Assembly (NCBI GenBank): GCA_019844455.1
Contig: GCA_019844455.1_3938.2
Strand: one strand, 5' to 3'
DNA length: 18,746 nt
Source of the DNA: a phage
Notes under the pieces: generated by a model
Seen by the model: only the letters and a program-made list of their open reading frames with translations
Told to the model about the DNA's origin: nothing
Databases searched by the model: none
Shown here: in pieces, positions 967-15,121 of the stretch
Layout: each line of letters begins with the position of its first letter
Numbering within the stretch: position 1 is the first letter of the stretch
Position numbers and translations under genes: made by a program

Positions 967-3333
967 ATGCGCATGGTAAATGACCACGCAGAAGTGATTA
1001 AGAGTTCAACTTCTTTAGAGACGTCTCAAGCACAGATTACAATGACACCTGAGATGTTCAGCCTTTTGAGTTCTGGTGTATATACCTTTAAAGAAAGGGC
1101 AGTGATTCGTGAACTGTCATGTAACGCAGTAGATGCTCAGAAAGAAGCTGGAAAAGAGAACATTCCGTTCCATGTGCATTTACCTACTCGTTTTGAGCCT
1201 TACTTTGAAGTTCGTGATTTTGGAACTGGATTGACTCATGATAAAGTTATGAGTTTGTACCTAAACTACGGGGCTTCTACGAAGAATGACTCTAATGACT
1301 ACATTGGTGCAATGGGTATCGGCTCAAAATCCCCATTTGCAATTGCTCAGTCATTCACAGTATCTAGCTATGTTGATGGTGTTGTTAATAAGTACTCTGT
1401 TTATCTTGAGAATGGTATCCCTCAAGTAACTAAGCTGACCACTAACCCAACAAAAGAACCTAATGGTTTAGCTGTACGTGTGGCAGTTGCTGACCACCGT
1501 ATCTCAAAGTTCTTTGAAGAAGCTGGAAATGTGTACTCATACTTCACTGTAAAACCAGAAAGTAATATTGAGTACGACGATGTATTAGCAGATATGAACG
1601 TCATTGCCCGTGAAGAAGGTGTTTATGATGCCATGATTCATAAGCAAAGCTGGCGTTCTAGTGGTAACAGGACAGAGTTTAATGTGGTGATGGGTAATAT
1701 TGCCTATCCAGTGAACATGGAAGCATTACTTGGTGATGATTTCTTCAAAGTCTTGCCAGAGTTTTTCCGTAGGAGCGTAGACCTTGTAAACATCTACATG
1801 CCTATTGGTTCAGTTGCTATAGCAGCTTCTCGTGAAGCATTGCAGATGAATGATACGACAAAAAATGTTATCATCGAGGCTACCAAAAAGATAACTGAAG
1901 CAATTACAAAGGATGTTATCAAGAAAGTTAATAGCCAACCTACACTCATGGATGCTGCACAGGCTTATGCAGAGCTACGTTTGAACTCACGAGAGATGTT
2001 TAATGCTGTGTGTCCAAAGCTAGAGTGGGGAGGCATTAAGCTTGATTCTCTGGAAGAAGAATTGTTAAACATTCGTCGTGGAATTATCTACGCAGAAGAC
2101 GGCTCAGTCATTTATGAACGTGACGGTAAAGGCAATATTAAGGTTGATAGGAACGGGAACAATATCCCTAAAGTAGATTATCTTTATGACCCAGTTGCTT
2201 ATGTCAAGTTCAACTCTTTAGAGAGTAAGATTCGTGCAACATCGCTTTCCTACACTCAAGAGGCAAGTATGTTCAATATCTTTGGCGCAATGCGTAAAAG
2301 CCAAATTGAACAGTTTTTGTTTGTTATAAATGACCGTCGCAATAAAAACGGTACTGAGAAGACTGTAGGACGCAATCAAATCTTGCGTGGTGCATGTCGA
2401 GACTATGCCAGTGAGTCAGGCCTGTTCCACAGATACAACGGTATTGTGTTTGTATTCTCGACTGAAAAAGAGTTAGACGACCTAATCAATCTACACAAAC
2501 TTGATAAAAGCTTGTTAAAGATTGTGAAGATGTCTGATAAGGAACACCATTATCAGCGTAAAGAAGCTGTAAGAGGTGTTGTAAAACTCTGGAAAGCTGT
2601 TCCAGCAGAAGGTGTAGCTTCCTATAAAGAGGTGTCAGAAGACTTAGACACAATTGAAGAACCTCAACTTTATATCAAGGCAGTAGGTGATACTGTTGAT
2701 GGCGAATGTTTTTGCTCATCTCCAGAAGATGTAGCTAAGTCAGTTGCCAATGTCATTGGGAAGACAGTCTATGTTTTCCGAAAAGCAAATTGGAAAAAGA
2801 TACCAGAAGACTGGATTGAGGTAGATGAGAAGCTCTTGAACGACAGCTTAACTGATGTTCACTGGATTAATCATAACAGATATATGACACGTATCTATAT
2901 GAATGGCGTCCTTGACCTCACAAGCAGTTGGATTATTGCCAGAAACTTTACGTTCAATAACAGGAAGATTTCTCGTGGCTATTGCTATTCACGAGACACA
3001 AACAAAACTATCTTCTTAGAAGGCAATGAAGATGCTGTTGAGGCAATGTTTGGTAAAATCCAATACGTTGCTGCACCGTTTGCATACGCTTACACTATTA
3101 GTAGATTGCAAACTTTGAAAGAATGCCTTGACAATGATACAAAGTTGTACAAGAAAATTAAGAAAGCTGGTGACCGCATGGTCATTAAGGTGACAAACTA
3201 CCTTTCAAAAAGAAAACAAGAAAACTTCTTGCTTTCTCATTTAGATTGGAATAAAGTGTCACCTATTGAAGTGAGTAAGTTCTTAGGCTTTGATGTGAAG
3301 TGTGTTCCAGAAGGGACTACAATTTACGATTAA
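967..3333 (+). CDS. rIIA: rIIA-like protein (membrane-integrity / lysis-inhibition protector; N-terminal GHKL-like ATPase region)
   Basis: 788-aa ORF with RBS aagagga upstream. The N-terminal blocks AVIRELSCNAVDA and DYIGAMGIGSKSPFAIAQSFTVSSY parallel T4 rIIA (recalled as AVVRELITNMIDAH and DFIGGFGLGSKSPF...SITSY). Followed directly by an rIIB homolog. Confidence 0.9.
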   Translation: MRMVNDHAEVIKSSTSLETSQAQITMTPEMFSLLSSGVYTFKERAVIRELSCNAVDAQKEAGKENIPFHVHLPTRFEPYFEVRDFGTGLTHDKVMSLYLNYGASTKNDSNDYIGAMGIGSKSPFAIAQSFTVSSYVDGVVNKYSVYLENGIPQVTKLTTNPTKEPNGLAVRVAVADHRISKFFEEAGNVYSYFTVKPESNIEYDDVLADMNVIAREEGVYDAMIHKQSWRSSGNRTEFNVVMGNIAYPVNMEALLGDDFFKVLPEFFRRSVDLVNIYMPIGSVAIAASREALQMNDTTKNVIIEATKKITEAITKDVIKKVNSQPTLMDAAQAYAELRLNSREMFNAVCPKLEWGGIKLDSLEEELLNIRRGIIYAEDGSVIYERDGKGNIKVDRNGNNIPKVDYLYDPVAYVKFNSLESKIRATSLSYTQEASMFNIFGAMRKSQIEQFLFVINDRRNKNGTEKTVGRNQILRGACRDYASESGLFHRYNGIVFVFSTEKELDDLINLHKLDKSLLKIVKMSDKEHHYQRKEAVRGVVKLWKAVPAEGVASYKEVSEDLDTIEEPQLYIKAVGDTVDGECFCSSPEDVAKSVANVIGKTVYVFRKANWKKIPEDWIEVDEKLLNDSLTDVHWINHNRYMTRIYMNGVLDLTSSWIIARNFTFNNRKISRGYCYSRDTNKTIFLEGNEDAVEAMFGKIQYVAAPFAYAYTISRLQTLKECLDNDTKLYKKIKKAGDRMVIKVTNYLSKRKQENFLLSHLDWNKVSPIEVSKFLGFDVKCVPEGTTIYD

Positions 3334-3338
3334 AGTGT

Positions 3339-3368
3339 TTGACAAGGGGCTTCAAAGCCCCTTAGAAT
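3339..3368 (+). promoter_or_regulatory. candidate early promoter with a stem-loop in the spacer (PeSL-like), upstream of rIIB
   Basis: TTGACA 3339-3344, 18-nt spacer holding hairpin aggggc-ttcaaa-gcccct (3345-3362), then TAGAAT 3363-3368. No T-run after the hairpin, so probably not an intrinsic terminator. Confidence 0.4.
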
Positions 3369-3412
3369 AGCCTTACAAAATGATTTATTAACTAACAAGA
3401 GAGAGTAATAAG

Positions 3413-4522: not shown

Positions 4523-4539
4523 TAAGTAATTTCTTAAAA

Positions 4540-4562
4540 GGCTGCTTCGGCGGCCTTTTTTA
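4540..4562 (+). terminator. rho-independent terminator after rIIB
   Basis: Stem ggctgc/gcggcc (one G-U wobble) with ttcg tetraloop, followed by tttttta. Confidence 0.7.
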
Positions 4563-4563
4563 T

Positions 4564-4591
4564 TTGTATTTTGTGCAGAGTGCTGTATAAT
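4564..4591 (+). promoter_or_regulatory. candidate sigma70-type promoter
   Basis: TTGTAT 4564-4569, 16-nt spacer, TATAAT 4586-4591; about 30 nt upstream of the RBS of the next gene. Confidence 0.45.
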
Positions 4592-6331: not shown

Positions 6332-6353
6332 AGGCTCCTTCGGGAGCCTTTTT
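6332..6353 (+). terminator. rho-independent terminator
   Basis: Same stem as at 406 (aggctcc/ggagcct, here with a ttcg loop), followed by ttttt; sits 12 nt after the stop at 6320. Confidence 0.65.
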
Positions 6354-6372
6354 CATTTCAGGAGATTGTTAA

Positions 6373-8174: not shown

Positions 8175-8960
8175 ATGGGTATTGTAAAAATAATTAATGG
8201 TGATATCTTTGCCGCATTTGATAAAGGTAAGTTTGACATCATCGGTCACGGTTGCAACTGTATGAATTTAATGGGTGCAGGTATCGCTGACAAGATTTCT
8301 AAACTTTACCCAAAAGCATATGAGACCGATACAGAAGTTTATCTGTATGCAGGTGGTATAGGACACAAACCCTGTGAAAATTTACTGGGTAATTTCTCTG
8401 TAGCACGTTTAAAACAAGGTCGTATAGCTAACCTTTACACTCAGCTTAAGACTGGTAAAGATGCCCGATACAGTGCTTTAGAGTCATCTTTGAAACAGCT
8501 TAACAGATACTGTGAAGTTAATCAGTTGAAGAAGGTTGGTTTACCTATGATTGGTGCAGGTATCGGTGGACTTGAACCTCAAGCCGTCACAGTTATCATT
8601 AATCAGGTGATGAAGAGTGTAGATGTTTATCTGTATGTCTACGAAGGAGAGATGTACCACAAGTTACGCTCAGGTTGGAATAACTACTGTGAACCAGAAT
8701 ACTTTGCAGGTGTAGTAACGTTCAAAGATGATACAGTTACCCTCTTCAGACGAAGAAAAGGTAAGATACATCAAAGTAACCCTCCGGTTGAGAAGATGTC
8801 TCTAAGTAACGCTCTAGTTACCCACCTGTCGAAGAGCAATCACAGGATAGCCGTAACATTTGGCAGTGATGCAGATACATATATTTATGCAAGAACTGAT
8901 GAGGATATCGAGACGGTCTTCTCTTCACCAGAAGTTACCTTCTTAGACGCAAAGAACTAA
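8175..8960 (+). CDS. macro-domain (ADP-ribose binding/processing) protein with a C-terminal extension of about 100 aa
   Basis: IINGDIF...DIIGHGCNCMNLMGAGIADKI parallels the macrodomain core (recalled from YmdB as VQGDIT...VNAANpSLmGGGGVDGAIH). Later LPMIGAGIGG parallels FPAISTGVYG, and YLYVYE parallels YFVCYD. RBS gggagag upstream. Confidence 0.65.
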   Translation: MGIVKIINGDIFAAFDKGKFDIIGHGCNCMNLMGAGIADKISKLYPKAYETDTEVYLYAGGIGHKPCENLLGNFSVARLKQGRIANLYTQLKTGKDARYSALESSLKQLNRYCEVNQLKKVGLPMIGAGIGGLEPQAVTVIINQVMKSVDVYLYVYEGEMYHKLRSGWNNYCEPEYFAGVVTFKDDTVTLFRRRKGKIHQSNPPVEKMSLSNALVTHLSKSNHRIAVTFGSDADTYIYARTDEDIETVFSSPEVTFLDAKN

Positions 8961-8990
8961 GAAACTTTGTATAATATTCACAATAGACTA

Positions 8991-9034
8991 AGCCTTCCTT
9001 ATCTGGTAAATTTTTCAGGTAAGGAGGGCTTTTT
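8991..9034 (+). terminator. possible terminator (long-loop hairpin plus T-run)
   Basis: agccttcctta (8991-9001) pairs with taaggagggct (9020-9030) with one mismatch and an 18-nt loop, then ttttt. Weaker than the other terminators. Confidence 0.3.
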
Positions 9035-9213
9035 CATTTCAGGATTGTGCAGGTAGAGTTCTGTAGAGAAATCTGTAGAGAGAATTTTGAACTCCAAAGA
9101 GAAAATTCATTTTCAAACTGTGCAGGTAATCTCCAAAGAGCTTTTTCATTTTCAAAACGTGCAGACCCCGCTCAGGTCGGGCAAGAAAAATCATTTTAGA
9201 ATCGTGCAGGTAG
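9035..9213. repeat. four iteron-like direct repeats (about 21 bp, core GTGCAG)
   Basis: catttcaggattgtgcaggta (9035-9055), cattttcaaactgtgcaggta (9108-9128), cattttcaaaacgtgcaga (9147-9165), cattttagaatcgtgcaggtagg (9192-9213). Non-coding leader between a terminator and a strong promoter. Confidence 0.5.
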
Positions 9214-9236
9214 GTTTTTATAGAGAGCCAGACCAA

Positions 9237-9267
9237 CCCCTCTCCCCCTCTTACTCCACCTCTCCCC
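9237..9267. repeat. polypyrimidine (CT-rich) tract
   Basis: cccctctccccctcttactccacctctcccc is 31 nt with only two purines on the plus strand. Confidence 0.5.
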
Positions 9268-9366
9268 AAAAGTCAAGAGAAAAATTTGTAGCTGGTTGAA
9301 AAATAATTCTTGATTTGTGTTCTGTTTTGTGGTAGTCGTGCGCGCCCGTTCATTTCCCAACCTTAC

Positions 9367-9417
9367 AAAAAATATTTAATAAAAACCGTTGACACGCCAA
9401 ACAAGTTTACGTACTAT
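9367..9417 (+). promoter_or_regulatory. strong sigma70-type early promoter with an A/T-rich UP-like element; heads the small-gene array
   Basis: A/T block aaaaaatatttaataaaaa (9367-9385), TTGACA 9389-9394, 17-nt spacer, TACTAT 9412-9417. It is followed by a 5'-UTR hairpin gggc-aagcaa-gccc (9429-9442) and the shared RBS region (cctaaactggagaatcgaaaATG). Confidence 0.6.
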
Positions 9418-9466
9418 TTGCATCAGACGGGCAAGCAAGCCCACTTCCTAAACTGGAGAATCGAAA

Positions 9467-9673
9467 ATGCTTTATAGTCGTGAATTGATGGTTACAACTA
9501 ACGTTAACACAAAGGTAAAACGTTTTTACATGCAAGTATGTGGCGCATGGTCTAGAATATCAGAGGCTGACTATTGCAACTATGTAGAAACAGCTATAAA
9601 CTCTAATTGCTACCTTACAAGAAATACAAGAAAGTACATAAGACAGACAGCAGTTTATTACTACGATGCCTAA
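9467..9673 (+). CDS. hypothetical small protein (68 aa)
   Basis: First ORF after the strong promoter; preceded by the shared RBS region. No recognisable motif. Confidence 0.5.
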   Translation: MLYSRELMVTTNVNTKVKRFYMQVCGAWSRISEADYCNYVETAINSNCYLTRNTRKYIRQTAVYYYDA

Positions 9674-9681
9674 TAAAGTAC

Positions 9682-9764
9682 TTTACAAGGGGCTTAAAAG
9701 CTGATATCTTAAGCCCCAAATAAAGAGCTTTACCAAATCAACCCTTAAACTAGGAGATTCAAAA
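9682..9764 (+). promoter_or_regulatory. intergenic module type A, copy 1 (PeSL-like: -35, stem-loop, -10, shared RBS region)
   Basis: TTTACA 9682-9687; 9-bp perfect stem ggggcttaa/ttaagcccc (9689-9697 / 9709-9717); TATCTT 9705-9710 (17-nt spacer); then agataaagagctttacc...cttaaactaggagattcaaaaATG. No T-run after the hairpin. Confidence 0.5.
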
Positions 9765-10145
9765 ATGGCATATCGTGCACCTAAATTCATCAACAAAGAC
9801 AACTTTCGCAACGCACTGGAGAAGTCACTTGATGAGAATTTTAAAGGTAACGTTATTGTTGTTCACTCGTTTAATTTTAAGTATGATATCAATGGGAATA
9901 AAATTAACCATTACACGGCGACAATGCTAGATGGTACTCTTTCAAGTGAAAAAGCCATTTTACATGCACTTGCTGGACGTGGTAAAAACCTGATAAGATG
10001 CGATAAGAGACGTTATCAGGGTGGCGCATATGGTTACGATGATGCTGTTTATCATCTTGAAAATATGGGCTATCAAGTAGAAAAAGCTGGAGTGTCTCAA
10101 ATAATCGGTAGTGATGGTTATGTAACAATCTTCAAAATTAACTGA
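9765..10145 (+). CDS. hypothetical protein (126 aa)
   Basis: ORF preceded by the shared RBS region (GGAG 8 nt upstream). The 3' end (...aaaattaacTGA) runs into the next module. Confidence 0.55.
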   Translation: MAYRAPKFINKDNFRNALEKSLDENFKGNVIVVHSFNFKYDINGNKINHYTATMLDGTLSSEKAILHALAGRGKNLIRCDKRRYQGGAYGYDDAVYHLENMGYQVEKAGVSQIIGSDGYVTIFKIN

Positions 10146-10153
10146 TAAAGTAC

Positions 10154-10233
10154 TTTACAAGGGGCTTATAGTTCGATAAAGTAAGCCCCAGATAAAGAGC
10201 TTTACCACTAAATCCTAAATTGGAGATTCAAAA
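10154..10233 (+). promoter_or_regulatory. intergenic module type A, copy 2
   Basis: TTTACA 10154-10159; stem ggggctta/taagcccc (10161-10168 / 10182-10189) with 13-nt loop; then cagataaagagctttaccactaaatcctaaattggagattcaaaaATG. Confidence 0.5.
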
Positions 10234-10524
10234 ATGGCTACTATCAAAAACGTTGTAATTCCTGTAAAAACTCGTGATGACGCTCGCATCATGGCGAAAA
10301 AGTTAGGCGGGAAAGTGGTTGACAACGGAAAACAATCTGCTGTAAGATGGGGTGTGAAGGCTGATAAACAGTTGAAGTTAAAAAATTCACCAATAAATCT
10401 TTTTACATGTGTAAACACTATCGGAAAGACAAATGTATACACGAAAAAGGCATATATTAGACGCGTAGCCTTAACATCTCCAATTCGTACAATGAGAGGT
10501 TATGCAAAGCTGAAAATTAACTGA
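10234..10524 (+). CDS. hypothetical basic protein (96 aa, K/R-rich)
   Basis: ORF with the shared RBS region. Lys/Arg-rich throughout; its C-terminal codons (...aaaattaacTGA) match those of the 9765 gene. Confidence 0.55.
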   Translation: MATIKNVVIPVKTRDDARIMAKKLGGKVVDNGKQSAVRWGVKADKQLKLKNSPINLFTCVNTIGKTNVYTKKAYIRRVALTSPIRTMRGYAKLKIN

Positions 10525-10532
10525 TAAAGTAC

Positions 10533-10612
10533 TTTACAAGGGGCTTAAAAGTTGGTATCTTAAGCCCCAGATAAAGAGCTTTACCACTAAATCCTAAACT
10601 GGAGATTCAAAA
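10533..10612 (+). promoter_or_regulatory. intergenic module type A, copy 3
   Basis: TTTACA 10533-10538; stem ggggcttaa/ttaagcccc (10540-10548 / 10560-10568); TATCTT 10556-10561 (17-nt spacer). Near-identical over about 90 nt to the copy at 12196-12282. Confidence 0.5.
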
Positions 10613-11125
10613 ATGAAAACTGTAGACGCTACCTTTGAAGTTGTAAAAGAAAAATTCACCATTATCTATGAAGCTGTTAATTGCTTTGAAGCAAGCCATA
10701 ATCTTGATAATTGGGAATTTACAGATGACCATCAAGGCGGTGTGACTGTTAAAAATCCTAACTACCAGCATAATGAATTTAAATATGCAATCCCTTTACA
10801 TTACAGCCTTAAACAGCTTTCAAGTGACTATGCAAAACAAGGACGGGAAAATCCATCAAAAGAGGCTTACACAAGCTTACAGAAAGAACTAGAAAGAGAT
10901 TTAGAGGCTTCAGAGTATAACATTGCCGCGAAAGTTGTAGATGCAAATGGCAACACGGTTTTAGATAGTTTTTATATTGGTTACGCTTTCGACTGGTGCT
11001 ATAGTGACGGCGATGATTTAGAGGATAGGCTAAAAGAGGAAGTGAACAATTCAGACGCAGAATCTGAAGTATTAGAACGCTTGGAAGCATTAAAAGATTC
11101 AGTGATGAATATCTTTAAGGACTAA
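10613..11125 (+). CDS. hypothetical acidic protein (170 aa)
   Basis: ORF with the shared RBS region. Strongly Asp/Glu-rich, especially toward the C-terminus. Confidence 0.55.
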   Translation: MKTVDATFEVVKEKFTIIYEAVNCFEASHNLDNWEFTDDHQGGVTVKNPNYQHNEFKYAIPLHYSLKQLSSDYAKQGRENPSKEAYTSLQKELERDLEASEYNIAAKVVDANGNTVLDSFYIGYAFDWCYSDGDDLEDRLKEEVNNSDAESEVLERLEALKDSVMNIFKD

Positions 11126-11134
11126 ATAGATTTC

Positions 11135-11212
11135 TTTACACGGGGCTATCAAGCTGATAAGATAGCCCCAGATAAAGAGATTTATCAACTATCCTAAACT
11201 GGAGATTCAAAA
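11135..11212 (+). promoter_or_regulatory. intergenic module type A, copy 4 (variant stem)
   Basis: TTTACA 11135-11140; stem ggggctatc/gatagcccc (11142-11150 / 11161-11169); then cagataaagagatttatcaactatcctaaactggagattcaaaaATG. Confidence 0.5.
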
Positions 11213-11509
11213 ATGAAATTATCAAATAAAGTCCGTGAAAATCTAAGCAAGTTACTCAACAAAATTGATTTTATCGAGACATCAAGGAATAGTCATGATG
11301 TTATGGAATGGTTACACGGAAAAATCAAAGGCCGTCGTGTAGTGATTTGCTTATGGAATAGTTGCAGGGAATATAAAAAACCTGTATTACAAGTCAATAT
11401 CTATGATGATACTTTTAAAAGCCCTGTAAAGTCTAAAAGTGATTTATTAGAATCCTATGAGATAACTGTAAATGGCAAAGTATCAAGTAAAGAGGAAACA
11501 CCATGTTAA
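11213..11509 (+). CDS. hypothetical protein (98 aa)
   Basis: ORF with the shared RBS region. No recognisable motif. Confidence 0.5.
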   Translation: MKLSNKVRENLSKLLNKIDFIETSRNSHDVMEWLHGKIKGRRVVICLWNSCREYKKPVLQVNIYDDTFKSPVKSKSDLLESYEITVNGKVSSKEETPC

Positions 11510-11835
11510 TGACTGGTATCACTTCAATCATTGCCATTTTCGCGCTATATAAGGCATATAAAGCCTATAATCTAGCAAATAAGGCAATCACACAGCAGGT
11601 TAGCAATAGCCTTGTAAAAAGCTTTCTAGGGCGTCTCAGTGATGAGCAAATAAAGCGGTTAGAAATGAGCTTCAGATTCAAAGCGAAAACCTATCAGATA
11701 AGTGACATCTTCAAGGATGATTTCCAGTTAGTCGATGATTATAATTCTCTGATAAATGCTTTAAATATCAGTGACTTAAAAGACTACTACGCTGTAATTG
11801 TTCAAGAGTTGAGCAAACGAAAACAAAACTGTTGA
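11503..11835 (+). CDS. hypothetical protein with N-terminal hydrophobic segment (110 aa)
   Basis: ATG overlaps the upstream stop (ATGTTAATG); RBS agagga upstream. N-terminus GITSIIAIFALY is hydrophobic. The stop TGA (11833-11835) sits inside the TTGACA of the next module. Confidence 0.5.
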   Translation: MLMTGITSIIAIFALYKAYKAYNLANKAITQQVSNSLVKSFLGRLSDEQIKRLEMSFRFKAKTYQISDIFKDDFQLVDDYNSLINALNISDLKDYYAVIVQELSKRKQNC

Positions 11836-11924
11836 CACTGATTTTTAGATAGATTAAATTACACATCAACGGGGAGGGAACAACCTTCCCACTAAATAAA
11901 GTCCTTAAACTAGGAGATTCTAAA
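11832..11924 (+). promoter_or_regulatory. intergenic module type B, copy 1 (sigma70-like promoter, 5'-UTR hairpin, shared RBS region)
   Basis: TTGACA 11832-11837, 17-nt spacer, TAAATT 11855-11860, hairpin gggaa-caacc-ttccc (11876-11890), then actaaataaagtccttaaactaggagattctaaaATG. Confidence 0.55.
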
Positions 11925-12197
11925 ATGTATACTACTAACAATGGCCTCACTTTGAACGTCACACTACGTCACTATGTAGATGGTGTCATGCACTTTGAAG
12001 ATTTACAAGCTGAACAACATATCTTAGATTGGCAAGTCGCAGGACTCCAAAAAACTGCTACGGGATACGGTAAAAAGATTCCAACTAGTTGGAAAGTTCA
12101 CTATGAAGGACGTTTGCGCAGAATTTATCAAGATGTGCAAAGCAATAGCGCATCGAGTTACATTATAGTAAAAGGTGAAAAACTGCATTTAGTATAA
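11925..12197 (+). CDS. hypothetical protein (90 aa)
   Basis: ORF with the shared RBS region. No recognisable motif. Confidence 0.5.
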   Translation: MYTTNNGLTLNVTLRHYVDGVMHFEDLQAEQHILDWQVAGLQKTATGYGKKIPTSWKVHYEGRLRRIYQDVQSNSASSYIIVKGEKLHLV

Positions 12198-12202
12198 AGT
12201 AC

Positions 12203-12282
12203 TTTACAAGGGGCTTAAAAGTTGGTATCTTAAGCCCCAGATAAAGAGCTTTACCCCTAAATCCTAAATTGGAGATTCAAAA
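12203..12282 (+). promoter_or_regulatory. intergenic module type A, copy 5
   Basis: Near-identical to copy 3 (two substitutions that I counted over about 90 nt): taaagtactttacaaggggcttaaaagttggtatcttaagccccagataaagagctttacccctaaatcctaaattggagattcaaaaATG. Confidence 0.5.
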
Positions 12283-12687
12283 ATGGCTATTAATAATCGT
12301 GAGTTATCAATCTTAAAAGCACGTTTAACCGTTAATCGAATCAATGTTATCACGTCATCAGCACCAGACGAGACATTACACAACATTATCGGGAAGATTC
12401 AAGGTGTTATCTTAGACGTTGAGAATGTAAAAAACTCATTAGCAGACGTTGCAGCAGGTGTTACACTAGACGGCGCACAATATGAAATGATTGACATGTT
12501 AGGCAAATCAAAGGTTATGAATAAAGAGTTAGACTTAAAAATGTTTCGATTTGCCGTGAAAGTATGGCTATCTGTCGAGTATGATGCTAATTTTGCAATT
12601 GCTGATTTCTTTGCCACTTGGTTGCAACGTAACTTAACAAATCATGATTTTCGTGATATCTGTGATGCAATTTACGCAGAACTTTAA
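12283..12687 (+). CDS. hypothetical protein (134 aa)
   Basis: ORF with the shared RBS region. No recognisable motif. Confidence 0.55.
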   Translation: MAINNRELSILKARLTVNRINVITSSAPDETLHNIIGKIQGVILDVENVKNSLADVAAGVTLDGAQYEMIDMLGKSKVMNKELDLKMFRFAVKVWLSVEYDANFAIADFFATWLQRNLTNHDFRDICDAIYAEL

Positions 12688-12695
12688 AAATTTTA

Positions 12696-12787
12696 TTGAC
12701 ACTGATTTTTAGATAGACTAAATTACACATCAACGGGGAGGGAACAACCTTCCCACTAAATAAAGTCCTTAAACTAGGAGATTCAAA
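12696..12787 (+). promoter_or_regulatory. intergenic module type B, copy 2
   Basis: TTGACA 12696-12701, 17-nt spacer, TAAATT; differs from copy 1 by about two substitutions over about 90 nt. Confidence 0.55.
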
Positions 12788-13330
12788 ATGAAATGCTTTC
12801 ACGGTACTACTCAAGAAAACTTTATCAACCTGATTAATAACGGTGATAAACCATCAGGTGTATGGAATTGTTCGGATATGGACGGCAATTTTTACGTGTA
12901 CCCAGAAAATAAACTCTATGGTGATGATGAGGAAGAGATAGCATCGGAAGGTATCCAGCAAGCTCTAGGAAATGCCACTATCACGGCAGCTTTTCAGATG
13001 AAAACTCAAAATATTGTTATCTTAGAACTTGACATTCCAGAGGATGAGCTAAATGATGATTATTCTTGTGATAACATGTCAAATATAGCAAGCTTTACAG
13101 AGTACTTTGATGTAAATTGGATTAAAAAGGTCTATACAACAGAGTTCAACGCTATGTATTCACCTTTTTGTCTCCCTTCACTGGATAACCCAAATTTAAA
13201 TTATCTTGATGAAACATTGGAGCTACTTGCTAAAAGTATCCAACAATCCGACAGTATTCAGGTTTTTTGTGACATCATGGATACACTGACAGAAAACATT
13301 GTAGAGAGTGATTTAAAGGTCTTTTTCTAA
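12788..13330 (+). CDS. hypothetical strongly acidic protein (180 aa)
   Basis: ORF with the shared RBS region. Very Asp/Glu-rich with few Lys/Arg. Confidence 0.55.
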   Translation: MKCFHGTTQENFINLINNGDKPSGVWNCSDMDGNFYVYPENKLYGDDEEEIASEGIQQALGNATITAAFQMKTQNIVILELDIPEDELNDDYSCDNMSNIASFTEYFDVNWIKKVYTTEFNAMYSPFCLPSLDNPNLNYLDETLELLAKSIQQSDSIQVFCDIMDTLTENIVESDLKVFF

Positions 13331-13363
13331 AAACCTATACATTCACCTTATAAACACTGATTA

Positions 13364-13382
13364 ACCCCTTACAGGGGCTTTT
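13364..13382 (+). terminator. possible small terminator hairpin
   Basis: cccct-tac-agggg followed by cttttt; the loop is short, so weak. Followed by RBS gaggg and ATG 13397. Confidence 0.35.
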
Positions 13383-13396
13383 AGAGGGCTTAAATC

Positions 13397-13630
13397 ATGC
13401 TTACAACCATTTATCTCATCCTTTCTATCTGTAACGGTCATTCATGTGACTTTAAAGGGCTTGAAGAGTTTACAGGAAGTAAAGAAAATGCTATTCAGGT
13501 TTGCCAGATAGCAAGACAAGACTATCCCGCCAGTGACGACATTCAATGCTACTTTAAGACAGAAGATGAAGACGGCATCTATTTTGACAGCGTTGACGGT
13601 CAATATGAAATTATCATTGAAAAAGACTAG
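13397..13630 (+). CDS. hypothetical small acidic protein with hydrophobic N-terminus (77 aa)
   Basis: RBS gaggg upstream; does not use the shared RBS region. N-terminus MLTTIYLILSICNGHS is hydrophobic and may be a signal peptide. Confidence 0.5.
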   Translation: MLTTIYLILSICNGHSCDFKGLEEFTGSKENAIQVCQIARQDYPASDDIQCYFKTEDEDGIYFDSVDGQYEIIIEKD

Positions 13631-13721
13631 ACAAGCCTGATAAAAGTCTGTAAATTACACATCAACGGGGAGGGAATGACCTTCCCCACTAAATAAAGTC
13701 CTTAAACTAGGAGATTCAAAA
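13628..13721 (+). promoter_or_regulatory. intergenic module type B, copy 3 (degenerate -35)
   Basis: TAGACA 13628-13633 (overlaps stop TAG of the upstream gene), 17-nt spacer, TAAATT 13651-13656, hairpin gggaa-tgacc-ttccc, shared RBS region. Confidence 0.45.
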
Positions 13722-14063
13722 ATGGCTTATGTAACCGTAATTACCGATAAAGCTGGCTCATCTTGGTCAACTCAGGTTAGTGATAAGATGTCGCCTATGC
13801 AGTGCCTAAAATACTTTGAGCAGTGGAACAAAGGCGAGGATGTAAGCCCCTTTCAAGTGATGCAAATCATCCATACAGATAACGAAGGGAATAAAACGAC
13901 CTTGAACAGTGAATACTACGCAAGCCGTTTTGAAACGAGAAGTAAAACAATGAAGCTTTTACGTGAATCCGGCTATTCTCATATTGCCGCGCTAATCTGG
14001 GATGACCTGCTAAAAAGCCAGCGTATCAGCTATGTAAAACCTGAAAAAATATTCATCAGTTAA
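13722..14063 (+). CDS. hypothetical protein (113 aa)
   Basis: ORF with the shared RBS region. No recognisable motif. Confidence 0.55.
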   Translation: MAYVTVITDKAGSSWSTQVSDKMSPMQCLKYFEQWNKGEDVSPFQVMQIIHTDNEGNKTTLNSEYYASRFETRSKTMKLLRESGYSHIAALIWDDLLKSQRISYVKPEKIFIS

Positions 14064-14078
14064 TCAATAACTTACAAA

Positions 14079-14124
14079 AAACTTTTAAAAAAGTGTTGAC
14101 AATACCCCTTGACATTGGTAACTT
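14079..14124 (+). promoter_or_regulatory. possible promoter region (A/T-rich block plus two TTGACA hexamers)
   Basis: aaaaaacttttaaaaaag, then TTGACA at 14096-14101 and again at 14109-14114; no convincing -10. A 5' UTR of about 140 nt follows, containing ctttatag twice. Confidence 0.3.
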
Positions 14125-14263
14125 TGTTCGAGGGGGTTTATCTAAAAGGGATTCACTTAAAAGATTCTTTATAGATAAGCTTAAAAAATTGCTTGCAATC
14201 ATCTTCCAAAAACTTTATAGTTTATCTCAAGCAATAATGCTTTCCTAAACTGGAGATTCAAAA

Positions 14264-14794
14264 ATGAACAAGTTCAAAGCTATCAACTACATTCGCTCAA
14301 ATAGTGTCATGTCTAAGCCTGTTAAGGATACCTACGAATTTCGTTGCAATGGTGAACACTTTGCTACCATCACCAAATCAAACAACGGGGCTTATTATAT
14401 CCATCGTCGTAATGTTTCTACGGTTGTAGTTTCTAACTTTATGCAAGCTGTAGCGGAACTCCTCCCGCTCTTCTTAGAAAAGTATGCCGTACAGTGTGAA
14501 AGTGTTCGTGAATGCACTAAAACAGTGTTAAACGGTTATCGTATGGCTTACGAGCGCTCTTTAAAGAATCTCAATAAATACTACAAAGCACCGGAAGGCA
14601 CTTCATCCACAGCCTACGGGGTAGGGGGCTTCAATGTCAGCCTTTACGAAGTGGAAGAAATCGAGCTTTATGACCATCGCCCAAATGGTTACGCTAAGAC
14701 ACTGGGAGAGGGGTTAATGCTGAATATCAAGAACTTAGAAAAAACTTTAAGAGAAATTGAAAAAGATATTGACGAGACAATCAAAAATCTGTAA
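14264..14794 (+). CDS. hypothetical protein (176 aa)
   Basis: ORF with the shared RBS region. No recognisable motif. Confidence 0.55.
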   Translation: MNKFKAINYIRSNSVMSKPVKDTYEFRCNGEHFATITKSNNGAYYIHRRNVSTVVVSNFMQAVAELLPLFLEKYAVQCESVRECTKTVLNGYRMAYERSLKNLNKYYKAPEGTSSTAYGVGGFNVSLYEVEEIELYDHRPNGYAKTLGEGLMLNIKNLEKTLREIEKDIDETIKNL

Positions 14795-14857
14795 ATTGTC
14801 AATCAACGGGGGGGTAACCTGCCCCACTAAACAAAATCCTAAACTGGAGTTATCAAG
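14769..14857 (+). promoter_or_regulatory. intergenic module type B, copy 4 (promoter embedded in the upstream gene 3' end)
   Basis: TTGACG 14769-14774, 17-nt spacer, TAAATT 14792-14797 (overlaps stop TAA 14792-14794), G/C hairpin, variant RBS region ctaaactggagttatcaagATG. Confidence 0.45.
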
Positions 14858-15121
14858 ATGGAAAACGTAGAATTAACCACACTATTGCAGATTGCAACTG
14901 ACAAAGAAGACGTAGCGTTGTTTCACCGTATCGAAAGTGATTTGTTCAATGGTGAAATCATTAAAGAATCTTACGAAGTTGTCGGATTCAAAGATGGTAA
15001 AGCATTTGGCTTTTTTGACCTCGACAAAAGCAAAGCGGTTACAATGTACGATGTTCTATCTTGTGAAATTCTGACAAAATACAACGAAAAAAGGCTTGCA
15101 ACCTACGCCAATATGCAGTAA
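14858..15121 (+). CDS. hypothetical protein (87 aa)
   Basis: ORF with the variant RBS region (GGAG upstream). No recognisable motif. Confidence 0.5.
   Translation: MENVELTTLLQIATDKEDVALFHRIESDLFNGEIIKESYEVVGFKDGKAFGFFDLDKSKAVTMYDVLSCEILTKYNEKRLATYANMQ

Follow-up and report, generated by a model that had tools for sequence, protein, structure and literature searches.

Putative promoter and stem-loop modules between the small early genes of a Felix O1-like phage and their probable use as junctions for gene exchange

The stretch of phage DNA analysed here, 18,746 nucleotides (nt) long and referred to throughout as the window (NCBI GenBank assembly GCA_019844455.1, contig GCA_019844455.1_3938.2), carries an array of small genes whose spacers contain pairs of near-identical repeats, and the question that this locus raises is what such repeats are. 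An earlier note on this DNA had taken them for isolated repeat pairs and likely substrates of homologous recombination. The repeats are foremost cassettes of a promoter, a stem-loop and a ribosome-binding site, a point absent from that note. Very probably these modules are composite regulatory cassettes of the promoter-early stem-loop (PeSL) type, located in the variable early-gene array of a Felixounavirus, and serve also as junctions for gene exchange. PeSL cassettes were described in the T4-like phages RB49/phi1, PST/T4 and nt-1/KVP40 (Arbiol et al. 2010, PMC2839356; Comeau et al. 2014, PMC4122927). The assignment draws on the anatomy, conservation, covariation and distribution of the modules and on the comparative pattern of their junctions, and promoter activity, start sites and roles for the hairpins are deduced from these features.

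With the two copies of the type A pair set in register, 90 of 92 nt are identical between 10524-10615 and 12194-12285, the mismatches being at 10586/12256 (A/C) and 10599/12269 (C/T). The two differences over about 90 nt counted previously were thus found again, in a match slightly longer than claimed; over the shorter span compared at that time, 85 of 87 nt agree. The type B pair (11832-11924 and 12696-12787), said to be equally close, matches at 91 of 93 positions, the exceptions being a substitution (11854 T / 12718 C) and an indel of 1 nt. Identity extends from within the upstream stop codon as far as the downstream ATG, while the flanking coding sequences are unrelated, and the longest exact runs are 60 nt in the A pair and 66 nt in the B pair, the latter being the longest in the window. 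A chance origin was rejected, as in 50 dinucleotide-preserving shuffles of the window the longest exact repeat had a mean of 14.1 and a maximum of 18 nt. The spacings of 1670 bp (A) and 864 bp (B) agree with the 0.9-1.7 kb given before. The view that the repeats bracket gene pairs holds for B, which encloses g11925 and g12283, and fails for A, where four genes and two other modules lie between the copies. Nor are the pairs isolated: the window contains five A copies (9674, 10146, 10525, 11126 and 12198; 77-94% alike) and five B copies (11832, 12688/12696, 13628, 14769 and 15096), together with further related modules at 9389 and 3329.

Each module fills the space between one small gene's stop codon and the ATG that opens the following gene, and combines a predicted host sigma-70-type promoter, a G+C-rich stem-loop and a conserved leader with a ribosome-binding site (Table 1). 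Spacers measure about 84-96 nt for type A and 63-100 nt for type B in the window, and each ends with GGAG, 7-9 nt and ATG. The leader reads CCTAAAyTGGAGATTCAAAAATG, the 3' segment common to A and B copies, or CCTTAAACTAGGAGATTC. In a promoter scan, nine of the ten A and B modules had a sigma-70-type site whose spacer is 17 nt long; the 15096 module (TTGCAA-17-TAAATT), which matches the consensus at 8 of 12 positions, was absent from the scan list.

The type A layout is a stop codon, AAAGTAC, TTTACA, 17 nt, TAnnnT, AAGCCCC, AGATAAAGAGCTTTA, leader, GGAG, 7-9 nt and ATG. Conservation was assessed in an alignment of 46 distinct sequences from Felixounavirus, Mooglevirus, Suspvirus, Kolesnikvirus (Erwinia phages) and the unclassified phage ESCO45. 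The TTTACA hexamer at -35 is invariant in all 46, and the -10 keeps its first T, its A and its last T in every sequence, with free variation at the three positions in the middle, giving the forms TATCTT, TAAAGT, TAAGAT, TAGAGT, TATGAT, TAGTAT and TAATCT. Judged from the alignment, this pattern of variation is as expected for a -10 element and unlike that of an arbitrary hairpin loop.

Type B modules follow a different plan, namely TTGACA (or TAGACA, TTGACG, TTGCAA, TTGATT), 17 nt, TAAATT, 7 nt, AAC, stem-loop, ACTAAATAAAG, leader, GGAG and ATG. The TTG of the -35 is kept in 50 of 53 distinct sequences, with 17 nt before TAAATT or TAAAGT, and the hexamers persist even when they overlap the upstream stop codon or coding sequence; indeed, the upstream stop codon is often embedded in the -35 (TTGACA, TAGACA) or in the -10 (TAAATT). 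Stems of 4-8 bp form at essentially one start position in all 40 distinct sequences folded (-5 to -17 kcal/mol), for example GGGGAGG/CCUCCCC, GGGGAAGG/CCUUCCCC, GGGGG/CCCCC and GGGGC/GCCCC, and B modules fold with -17 to -19 kcal/mol. A start about 7-8 nt after the -10 would put the 5' end of the mRNA about 3 nt ahead of the stem, and the B hairpin would then be a 5'-terminal stem-loop protecting the message from 5'-end-dependent decay. Stem-loops at the 5' terminus protect Escherichia coli mRNAs in this manner, the ompA leader being an example; the B hairpin shares with them its distance of about 3 nt from a 5' end that is here predicted from the sequence.

Table 1 Features of the small-gene array and its spacers in the window, with predicted promoter elements, stem-loops and start sites.
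Feature	Positions	Strand	Promoter elements	Stem-loop, start and leader	Context
Array of 14 small cassette genes	9467..15437	+			Felix O1 ORF15-23 plus extra cassettes
B-like module	9389..9466	+	TTGACA-17-TACTAT 9389-9417	Short GGGC..GCCC hairpin; leader CCTAAACTGGAGAATCGAAA; ATG 9467	Upstream of g9467
Type A	9674..9764	+	TTTACA-17-TATCTT 9682-9710		g9467 stop codon to g9765 ATG
Type A	10146..10233	+	TTTACA-17-TAAAGT 10154-10182		
Type A, first copy of the earlier pair	10524..10612	+	-35 TTTACA 10533-10538; -10 TATCTT 10556-10561, TGn directly upstream	Two-part hairpin 10522-10586, inner stem 10540-10548 / 10560-10568; predicted start ~10569; ribosome-binding GGAG in leader	Ahead of ATG 10613
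Type A, slot-specific variant	11126..11212	+	TTTACA-17-TAAGAT 11135-11163		Upstream of g11213
Type B, first copy of the earlier pair	11832..11924	+	-35 TTGACA 11832-11837; -10 TAAATT 11855-11860	Predicted start ~11868; 7-bp stem-loop 11871-11890, then leader and ribosome-binding site	-35 holds g11503 TGA stop
Type A, second copy of the earlier pair	12194..12282	+	-35 12203-12208; -10 12226-12231	Hairpin 12195-12253; predicted start ~12239	
Type B, second copy of the earlier pair	12688..12787 (repeat proper 12696-12787)	+	-35 12696-12701; -10 12719-12724	Predicted start ~12732; stem-loop 12735-12754	
Type C spacer	13331..13396	+		Hairpin CCCCTTACAGGGG, then CTTTT	Between g12788 and g13397; no A/B module
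Type B	13628..13721	+	-35 TAGACA 13628-13633; -10 TAAATT 13651-13656	8-bp stem-loop after -10	-35 holds g13397 stop
Long spacer	14064..14263	+	Own promoter TTGCAA-17-TATAGT 14193-14221		Upstream of g14264
Short type B	14769..14857	+	-35 TTGACG; -10 TAAATT 14792-14797	Stem-loop, then ribosome-binding site	-35 inside g14264 3' end; -10 holds stop
Short type B	15096..15188	+	-35 TTGCAA; -10 TAAATT 15119-15124	Stem-loop, then ribosome-binding site	-35 inside g14858 3' end; -10 holds stop

In the RNA fold of type A, 11-13 bp form an outer stem, which a 3x3 internal loop separates from a 9-bp inner stem (GGGGCUUAA / UUAAGCCCC), and a loop of 10-11 nt holds the -10; energies are -24 to -30 kcal/mol and z-scores -2.6 to -5.7. 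In the 11126 variant the hairpin pairs fully, with 13 bp in the outer stem and 9 bp in the inner one, on either side of the 3x3 internal loop (-29.7 kcal/mol). In the alignment 93% of the cells are paired, against 31-54% when the partner columns are slid. Three pairs show two-sided changes; columns 19-44, in ESCO45 and in the Erwinia phages, and columns 6-57 go from G-C to U-A. The observed covariation score was reached by none of 500 shuffles. Wobble pairs of the U-G kind occur in the stems on the + strand only, in 16 of 46 and 40 of 46 sequences at two pairs. In this geometry the 5' arm of the inner stem fills the promoter spacer, the -10 lies in the loop and the 3' arm covers the start site, predicted about 8 nt past the -10. 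Because this start falls at the end of the inner 3' arm, a transcript from the A promoter would lack the hairpin, and the 20-22-bp two-part structure would form only in RNA reading through from upstream, where its most likely role is to attenuate read-through or to give the upstream message a 3' end that is stable or processed.

A doubtful but possible alternative sees the main role of the type A hairpin in RNase III processing, after the model of the T7 early region, with read-through polycistronic RNA being cut within the 20-22-bp stem. RNase III suits two helical turns with an internal loop, as at the T7 sites, and the 11-13-bp outer stem, symmetric 3x3 loop and 9-bp inner stem add up to about two turns. 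The outer stem is conserved with one compensatory pair, the + strand wobbles point to RNA, and the hairpin would occur only in RNA from upstream and has no T run behind it. Like the T7 hairpins, those of type A are intergenic, belong to an early polycistronic region and lack a U tract; after cutting, the upstream message would carry a hairpin at its 3' end and the 5' end of the downstream message would lie near the promoter start, and the promoter reading could coexist with it. The T7 sites, however, have no promoter, whereas the conservation of the loop suits a -10 here: a promoter explains why the T, the A and the final T are invariant, and a substrate of RNase III does not. The likeness is one of geometry, from which the cleavage would be predicted by analogy, and no Rfam family was matched, a search of 8900-17200 in E-value mode giving four sub-threshold chance matches only. 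The PeSL hairpins of T4-like phages, moreover, lowered downstream expression like a terminator (PMC2839356).

The G+C-rich words of the stems differ in ESCO45. In a comparison with 9600-17150 of the window, the GGGCTT of the window and of eight other relatives is replaced by GTGCTT in this phage; on the two strands, the window counts 15+14 GGGCTT and 6+6 GTGCTT, and ESCO45 3+3 and 15+10. The change is compensatory in all A stems (GGTGC..GCACC). Behind it may be conversion among copies or a trans factor whose specificity has changed, and it might suggest that the GGGGCTT word is read by a co-evolving phage factor.

It is quite unlikely that the inverted GGGGCTT / AAGCCCC words, along with similar single words in the 1.7-kb non-coding stretch behind the array, are operator sites for a phage DNA-binding protein, serving for example in the shut-off of early promoters, with the stem acting as a palindrome in DNA and not as RNA. 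In ESCO45 (L002, OM386661) all A copies and the type C hairpin do carry GGTGCTT / AAGCACC, and the change affects 5 of 18 aligned GGGC/GCCC sites of the non-coding stretch, some of them outside hairpins, where the background of G>T or C>A is about 4%. Recognition of DNA fits poorly with wobbles confined to the + strand, with the outer stem of the g11213 type, whose arms are not palindromes yet pair fully by way of wobbles and a single compensatory change, and with type B stems so diverse in sequence that pairing alone is kept; no candidate protein was identified. The outer arms as an operator palindrome were likewise rejected: AAAGTACTTT is a perfect palindrome in the window, and is not one in ESCO45, in Erwinia phage Tian or in the g11213-type copy, while the pairing of the arms is kept.

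For the reading as PeSL-type cassettes, comparison with the T4-like elements is instructive. There, a sigma-70-type early promoter and a GGGG..CCCC stem-loop in one of five positions lie between a stop codon and an ATG, and the elements are concentrated in variable regions and mediate indels and mini-circles (PMC2839356). The units found here share the stop-to-ATG extent of 60-120 nt, the sigma-70-type promoter sequence, the stem-loop in the spacer, over the -10 or just downstream, the tolerance of G-T pairs, and a 3' end with a ribosome-binding site of the GGAGAATCAAAATG type. They too are grouped in a variable region whose small genes have no known function, and they bound indels and replacements between close relatives. 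The crossovers of PeSL mini-circles sequenced by Arbiol et al. fall between the -10 and the ATG (PMC2839356), in agreement with the crossover pattern deduced below for the Felix-like modules. PeSLs of RB49 read directly from its genome have the same layout, e.g. TAAAAAGTTGTTGACAGGGGGTCACCGATCCCCTATAATGC...GGAGAATCAAACATG, and others carry the -10 in the loop. The differences concern the lineage (Ounavirinae instead of Straboviridae), the conserved outer stem added in type A, which results in the two-part hairpin, and the occurrence of two sharply defined families interleaved in a single array. In addition, promoter activity, terminator activity and mini-circles were demonstrated for the RB49/phi1 elements by their authors (PMC2839356), whereas the present modules are known from sequence alone.

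Homology between the two sets of elements was not supported: nhmmer searches of a 35 kb variable region of RB49 with the A and B profiles gave no significant match (E = 0.7 and 0.016), and among the matches listed by a database-wide blastn search all were Ounavirinae-type records. By architecture and behaviour the modules are of the PeSL kind, as analogues and not as demonstrated homologues. The ribosome-binding segment GGAGAATCAAAAATG is nearly letter-identical in RB49 PeSLs and Felix-like modules, which have no other similarity, and the Erwinia phages use AAGGAATCAAAACATG; this likeness is probably convergence on an optimal E. coli translation-initiation region.

Some of the modules had been noticed before as repeats. 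The Felix O1 genome paper (Whichard et al. 2010, PMC3185647) lists a 57-bp direct repeat CTTTACATGGGGCTTAAAAGTCTGTAAAGTAAGCCCCAGATAAAGAGCTTTACCACT between genes 15/16 and 19/20 and a 39-bp direct repeat TTGACACTGGTTTTTAGATAGATTAAATTACACATCAAC between genes 18/19 and 20/21, which are the same elements. In that paper the repeats lie outside the predicted promoters and terminators, no function or recombination role is proposed for them, and the organisation of transcription is called unknown (PMC3185647). The paper on phage wV8 does not mention promoters or repeats, nor does the Bas63 PhageMaP preprint mention the modules; no paper tying PeSLs to Felix O1-like phages was found in the searchable literature, beyond whose reach subscription papers lie. 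A literature search for Felixounavirus transcriptomes turned up unrelated papers only. In the reverse transcription PCR experiments available for Felix O1, ORF16, 20, 21 and 22 (ORF, open reading frame) were maximal at 5 min after infection (PMC3185647), and each of these has a module upstream.

Because modules flank every cassette gene, and A and B share the 3' leader, whole genes could be deleted, duplicated, reordered or swapped without breaking expression; homologous recombination would act within one genome or between co-infecting relatives. In order to look for such products, 30 loci were compared, comprising ten GenBank relatives, three other genera and IMG/VR contigs found by 16-mer. 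The order of the array is broadly colinear, gene presence or absence differs in nearly every locus, and the 30 loci contain 49 distinct gene adjacencies, most with a single module of normal length. SUT_S820 has g11503-B-x23 and lacks g11925 and g12283, the product expected from recombination of the two type B copies flagged at the outset. In LF82P5 all genes between g9467 and g12788 are gone and a single A module joins the two (an A×A deletion), and A×A products are also seen in radambza (g9765-A-g11213) and Felix O1 (g9467-A-g10613). Locus L019 (a 90-kb IMG/VR contig) has g10234 duplicated in tandem, cassette x39 occupies two different slots, two contigs of metagenome 3300045988 have opposite orders (x23-A-x30 and x30-A-x23), and the gene order of the Erwinia phage differs. 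The deletion and duplication variants joined at modules that the earlier note advised looking for thus exist in related genomes, and its proposal that recombination deletes, duplicates or swaps the enclosed genes is borne out by structural variants of relatives, mostly with one intact module at the junction; the event between these two particular copies is deduced from relatives and was not seen in this genome.

Mosaicism follows the same boundaries. The window and phage Ro111lw are essentially identical over 11126-14160 and only 70-94% identical to the left of it, the switch being at the A module 11126. The g14264 gene with its upstream promoter (about 14161-14755) is a different allele in the two phages, 77% identical, and the swap is bounded by the upstream spacer and the next B module; Ro111lw has a B module in place of the long spacer of the window, and the replaced tract begins at about 14161-14199.

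The position of the crossovers within the module was deduced from which half accompanies which gene, and the ends of BLAST segments were not used since the modules are alike and the ends would fall at the ATG regardless. Downstream of g9467 an A module stands ahead of four different genes, g12283 is followed by B ahead of four and g11503 by B ahead of three, and x23 and x30 are always followed by A. Conversely, g12788, g13722 and x23 have A or B upstream according to their neighbour. The promoter–hairpin half thus tracks the upstream gene, as far as these loci show. Both leader variants, TGGAG and TAGGAG, occur among junctions of one and the same type, and the 3' flank of cassette x38 is the leader alone. 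Since the promoter–hairpin half follows the upstream gene, crossovers would lie mostly in the 25-45-nt 3' leader shared by A and B, and this comparative pattern disagrees with the assumption that the full repeat of about 90 nt is the crossover substrate.

Gene conversion, which would keep the copies of one genome alike, had also been proposed and found support. The 101 A cores examined comprise 38 alleles. The same allele is present twice in the window (allele 3) and in Felix O1 (allele 9), and three times in L024 and L066 (allele 2 in each) and in L019 (allele 20); the GGTGC/GCACC stem is common to all ESCO45 copies, and one allele occupies different slots in different genomes. Under slot-preserving permutations, which leave shared ancestry in, mean identity between copies of one genome was 0.814 ± 0.006 compared with 0.843 observed (0 of 2000 permutations), and 5.6% of within-genome pairs were expected to be identical compared with 15.6% observed (again none of 2000 as high). 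The 10533 copy differs from the allele in the same slot of six close relatives (L001, L004, L005, L006, L048 and L049) at three core positions, all three of which match the paralogue 12203, whereas the flanks match the orthologues. On these sequences the 10533 copy appears to hold a short conversion tract from the paralogue type at 12203, and the excess sharing of variants within genomes indicates gene conversion.

Could selection on promoter, hairpin and ribosome-binding function alone account for the likeness of the copies, with module-bounded indels as the viable survivors? Functional positions are indeed the most conserved, viable whole-gene indels end between genes, and some indels are not bounded by modules. 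The 38 core alleles, on the other hand, show that many loop and spacer variants work, yet copies within a genome share alleles, the same allele appears in different slots, cassettes change order and slot, and mosaic switches occur at modules. Junction modules also have a normal length (84-96 nt for A, one 172-nt spacer aside), without scars or doubled modules. Selection as the whole explanation is thus very unlikely, and recombination, rather than selection alone, is taken to be the source of the junctions.

A dedicated, integron-like site-specific recombinase acting at the modules is highly improbable: it would accord with the cassette organisation, the single conserved junction element, the reordering and the restriction of crossovers to one part of the module, and was left open by the PeSL authors (PMC2839356), but there is no integrase or recombinase among the annotated Felix O1 genes, all ten cassette proteins scanned lack a Pfam domain, the adjacent tyrosine-recombinase integrase that marks integron attC sites is thus missing from both sets, the leader variants polymorphic within junction types imply scattered crossover points, and identities of 60-66 nt are long enough for general recombination.

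Several points weigh against the modules being PeSL-type regulatory cassettes and exchange junctions. None of the module hairpins has a T run behind it, and none is therefore a canonical intrinsic terminator, for which a G+C-rich hairpin with a direct T run would be expected; the four terminator-like calls in 8900-15700, including the true terminator at 8990-9031, all lie outside the modules. An attenuator role for the hairpin is argued by analogy from the reporter assay done on PeSLs. The -10 hexamers of type A (TATCTT, TAAAGT, TAAGAT) are weak ones, though many have an extended -10 TGn. In Felix O1, ORF17, 19 and 23 were maximal at 25 min though they too lie behind modules (PMC3185647), and the searchable literature holds no start sites, reporter data or recombination products for this phage or its relatives. 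On the side of exchange, shared ancestry may contribute to the permutation result; some indels are of another kind (a g10613 to g11503 spacer of 16 nt; x38 and x44 followed by a partial module only); and whole-gene indels in a compact array must end intergenically for viability, by which module-bounded junctions are partly expected from selection.

Beyond the reading as PeSL-type cassettes, a speculative and rather unlikely extension is that the array serves a strictly lytic phage as an integron-like platform for gene exchange. Crossovers would prefer the 25-45-nt leader common to A and B, a gene with a chimeric module would leave as a small circle and re-enter at any module, and gene conversion would keep the sites compatible. 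Re-entry of cassette circles at any module would explain the presence of x39 in two slots, the reversal of x23 and x30 and the tandem duplication.

The cassette reading provides a testable map of early transcription units with predicted starts, and module shuffling explains the differences between isolates in their small early genes, which likely have host-takeover or anti-defence functions. PeSL elements had not been described in this phage group, and modular shuffling of this type would extend beyond the T4-like phages, the same design having arisen, or persisted past recognisable homology, in a second myovirus family. Felix O1-like phages are widely used in the typing of Salmonella and E. 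coli, in biocontrol and in therapy. The finding bears on the exchange of accessory genes without an integrase in virulent phages and on the stability of engineered or therapeutic Felixounaviruses. A natural population suited to the study of module-mediated exchange is offered by metagenome 3300045988, which contains at least ten different Felixounavirus contigs (L034, L035, L037, L038, L045, L048, L049, L056, L060, L066, L075). The arrays of seven of its contigs were compared and had seven different cassette complements; L049 is 98% identical to the window over 10514-16926.

As for distribution, the A module was found in 287 phage records and the B module in 245, at about five places per genome. 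Nearly all of the records belong to Ounavirinae genera, the exceptions being one Staphylococcus and one Campylobacter record, and the Erwinia phages match the modules at about 78%. A profile search of the whole Felix O1 genome (86,155 bp) located A at 8630, 9231 and 10297 and B at 9935, 10800, 11365 and 11964; the modules are confined to 8.6-12.1 kb, apart from one weak A-like match between rIIA and rIIB. Multi-copy matches in IMG/VR are on contigs of 54-94 kb, mostly of 82-94 kb as in full Felixounavirus-type genomes, and lone 16-mer matches on odd-sized contigs are at about chance level. No match was found in 5,426 complete E. coli genomes, and host-derived repeats (repetitive extragenic palindromic sequences, REP, or bacterial interspersed mosaic elements, BIME) and mobile elements were thereby rejected as the origin. 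The modules are an old, lineage-specific trait of one genome region, and neither a recent invasion nor a host repeat; the recent spread suggested by the earlier note does not fit elements found across the subfamily.

The best matches of the window are Felix O1-like myoviruses of E. coli and Salmonella (Felixounavirus, subfamily Ounavirinae); the matches are mosaic, with phage Ro111lw reaching 96% identity over 68% of the window as query. The gene order is rIIA and rIIB, at the start as the rIIA-rIIB block of Felix O1, then a conserved block ending with a macro-domain or phosphatase gene (8175-8960), and then the small-gene array, made up of g9467, g9765, g10234, g10613, the overlapping pair g11213/g11503, g11925, g12283, g12788, g13397, g13722, g14264, g14858 and g15189. 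Starts were chosen with a Shine-Dalgarno rule, as the first-ATG rule gave false N-terminal extensions from inside the B loop (GGGAATGACC). Ten of the 14 cassette proteins were screened, and these ten had no match in Pfam and matched only families of unknown function in PHROGs. The type C junction between g12788 and g13397 is unchanged in all 21 loci that have it.

A site related to type A lies at 3329-3412, between rIIA and rIIB, with a promoter-like TTGACA-AGGGGCTTCAAAGCCCCT-TAGAAT and a GGGGCTT/AAGCCCC hairpin entirely within the spacer; Felix O1 has its weak A profile match at the same place (2290-2352). In the conserved block a canonical intrinsic terminator, AGGCTCCTxCGGGAGCCTTTTT, is present in three copies (406-439, 4539-4572 and 6332-6365), and a strong 17-bp terminator at 8990-9031 follows the macro-domain or phosphatase gene directly ahead of the array. 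The 500-nt spacer from this terminator to the first promoter of the array includes, at 9092-9209, three tandem copies of a 34-nt unit (CTCCAAAGAG..TTCATTTTCAAA.GTGCAG), 68-82% alike and spaced by 39-45 nt.

At the other end of the array, GGGGCTAAATAGCCCCAGATAC (15440-15470) lies right behind the g15189 stop codon and looks like a remnant of an A-type inner hairpin with an AGATA tail, and next after it, downstream of g15189, stands the terminator-like GGGGCTTTTTT. The following 1.7 kb (15440-17150) contain no ORFs and separate the + strand array from genes on the - strand. Because several relatives' GenBank records start or end in the matching region, it may be the site of the genome termini or of a replication origin. 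The region is dense in periodic words of 10-12 nt that look like iterons: CTTGTTA / TGTTAAG at about 15990-16950, the inverse TTAACA at 15934-15964, 5.5 copies of a 12-mer at 16886-16951, and three copies of ACTATATA at 16991-17020.

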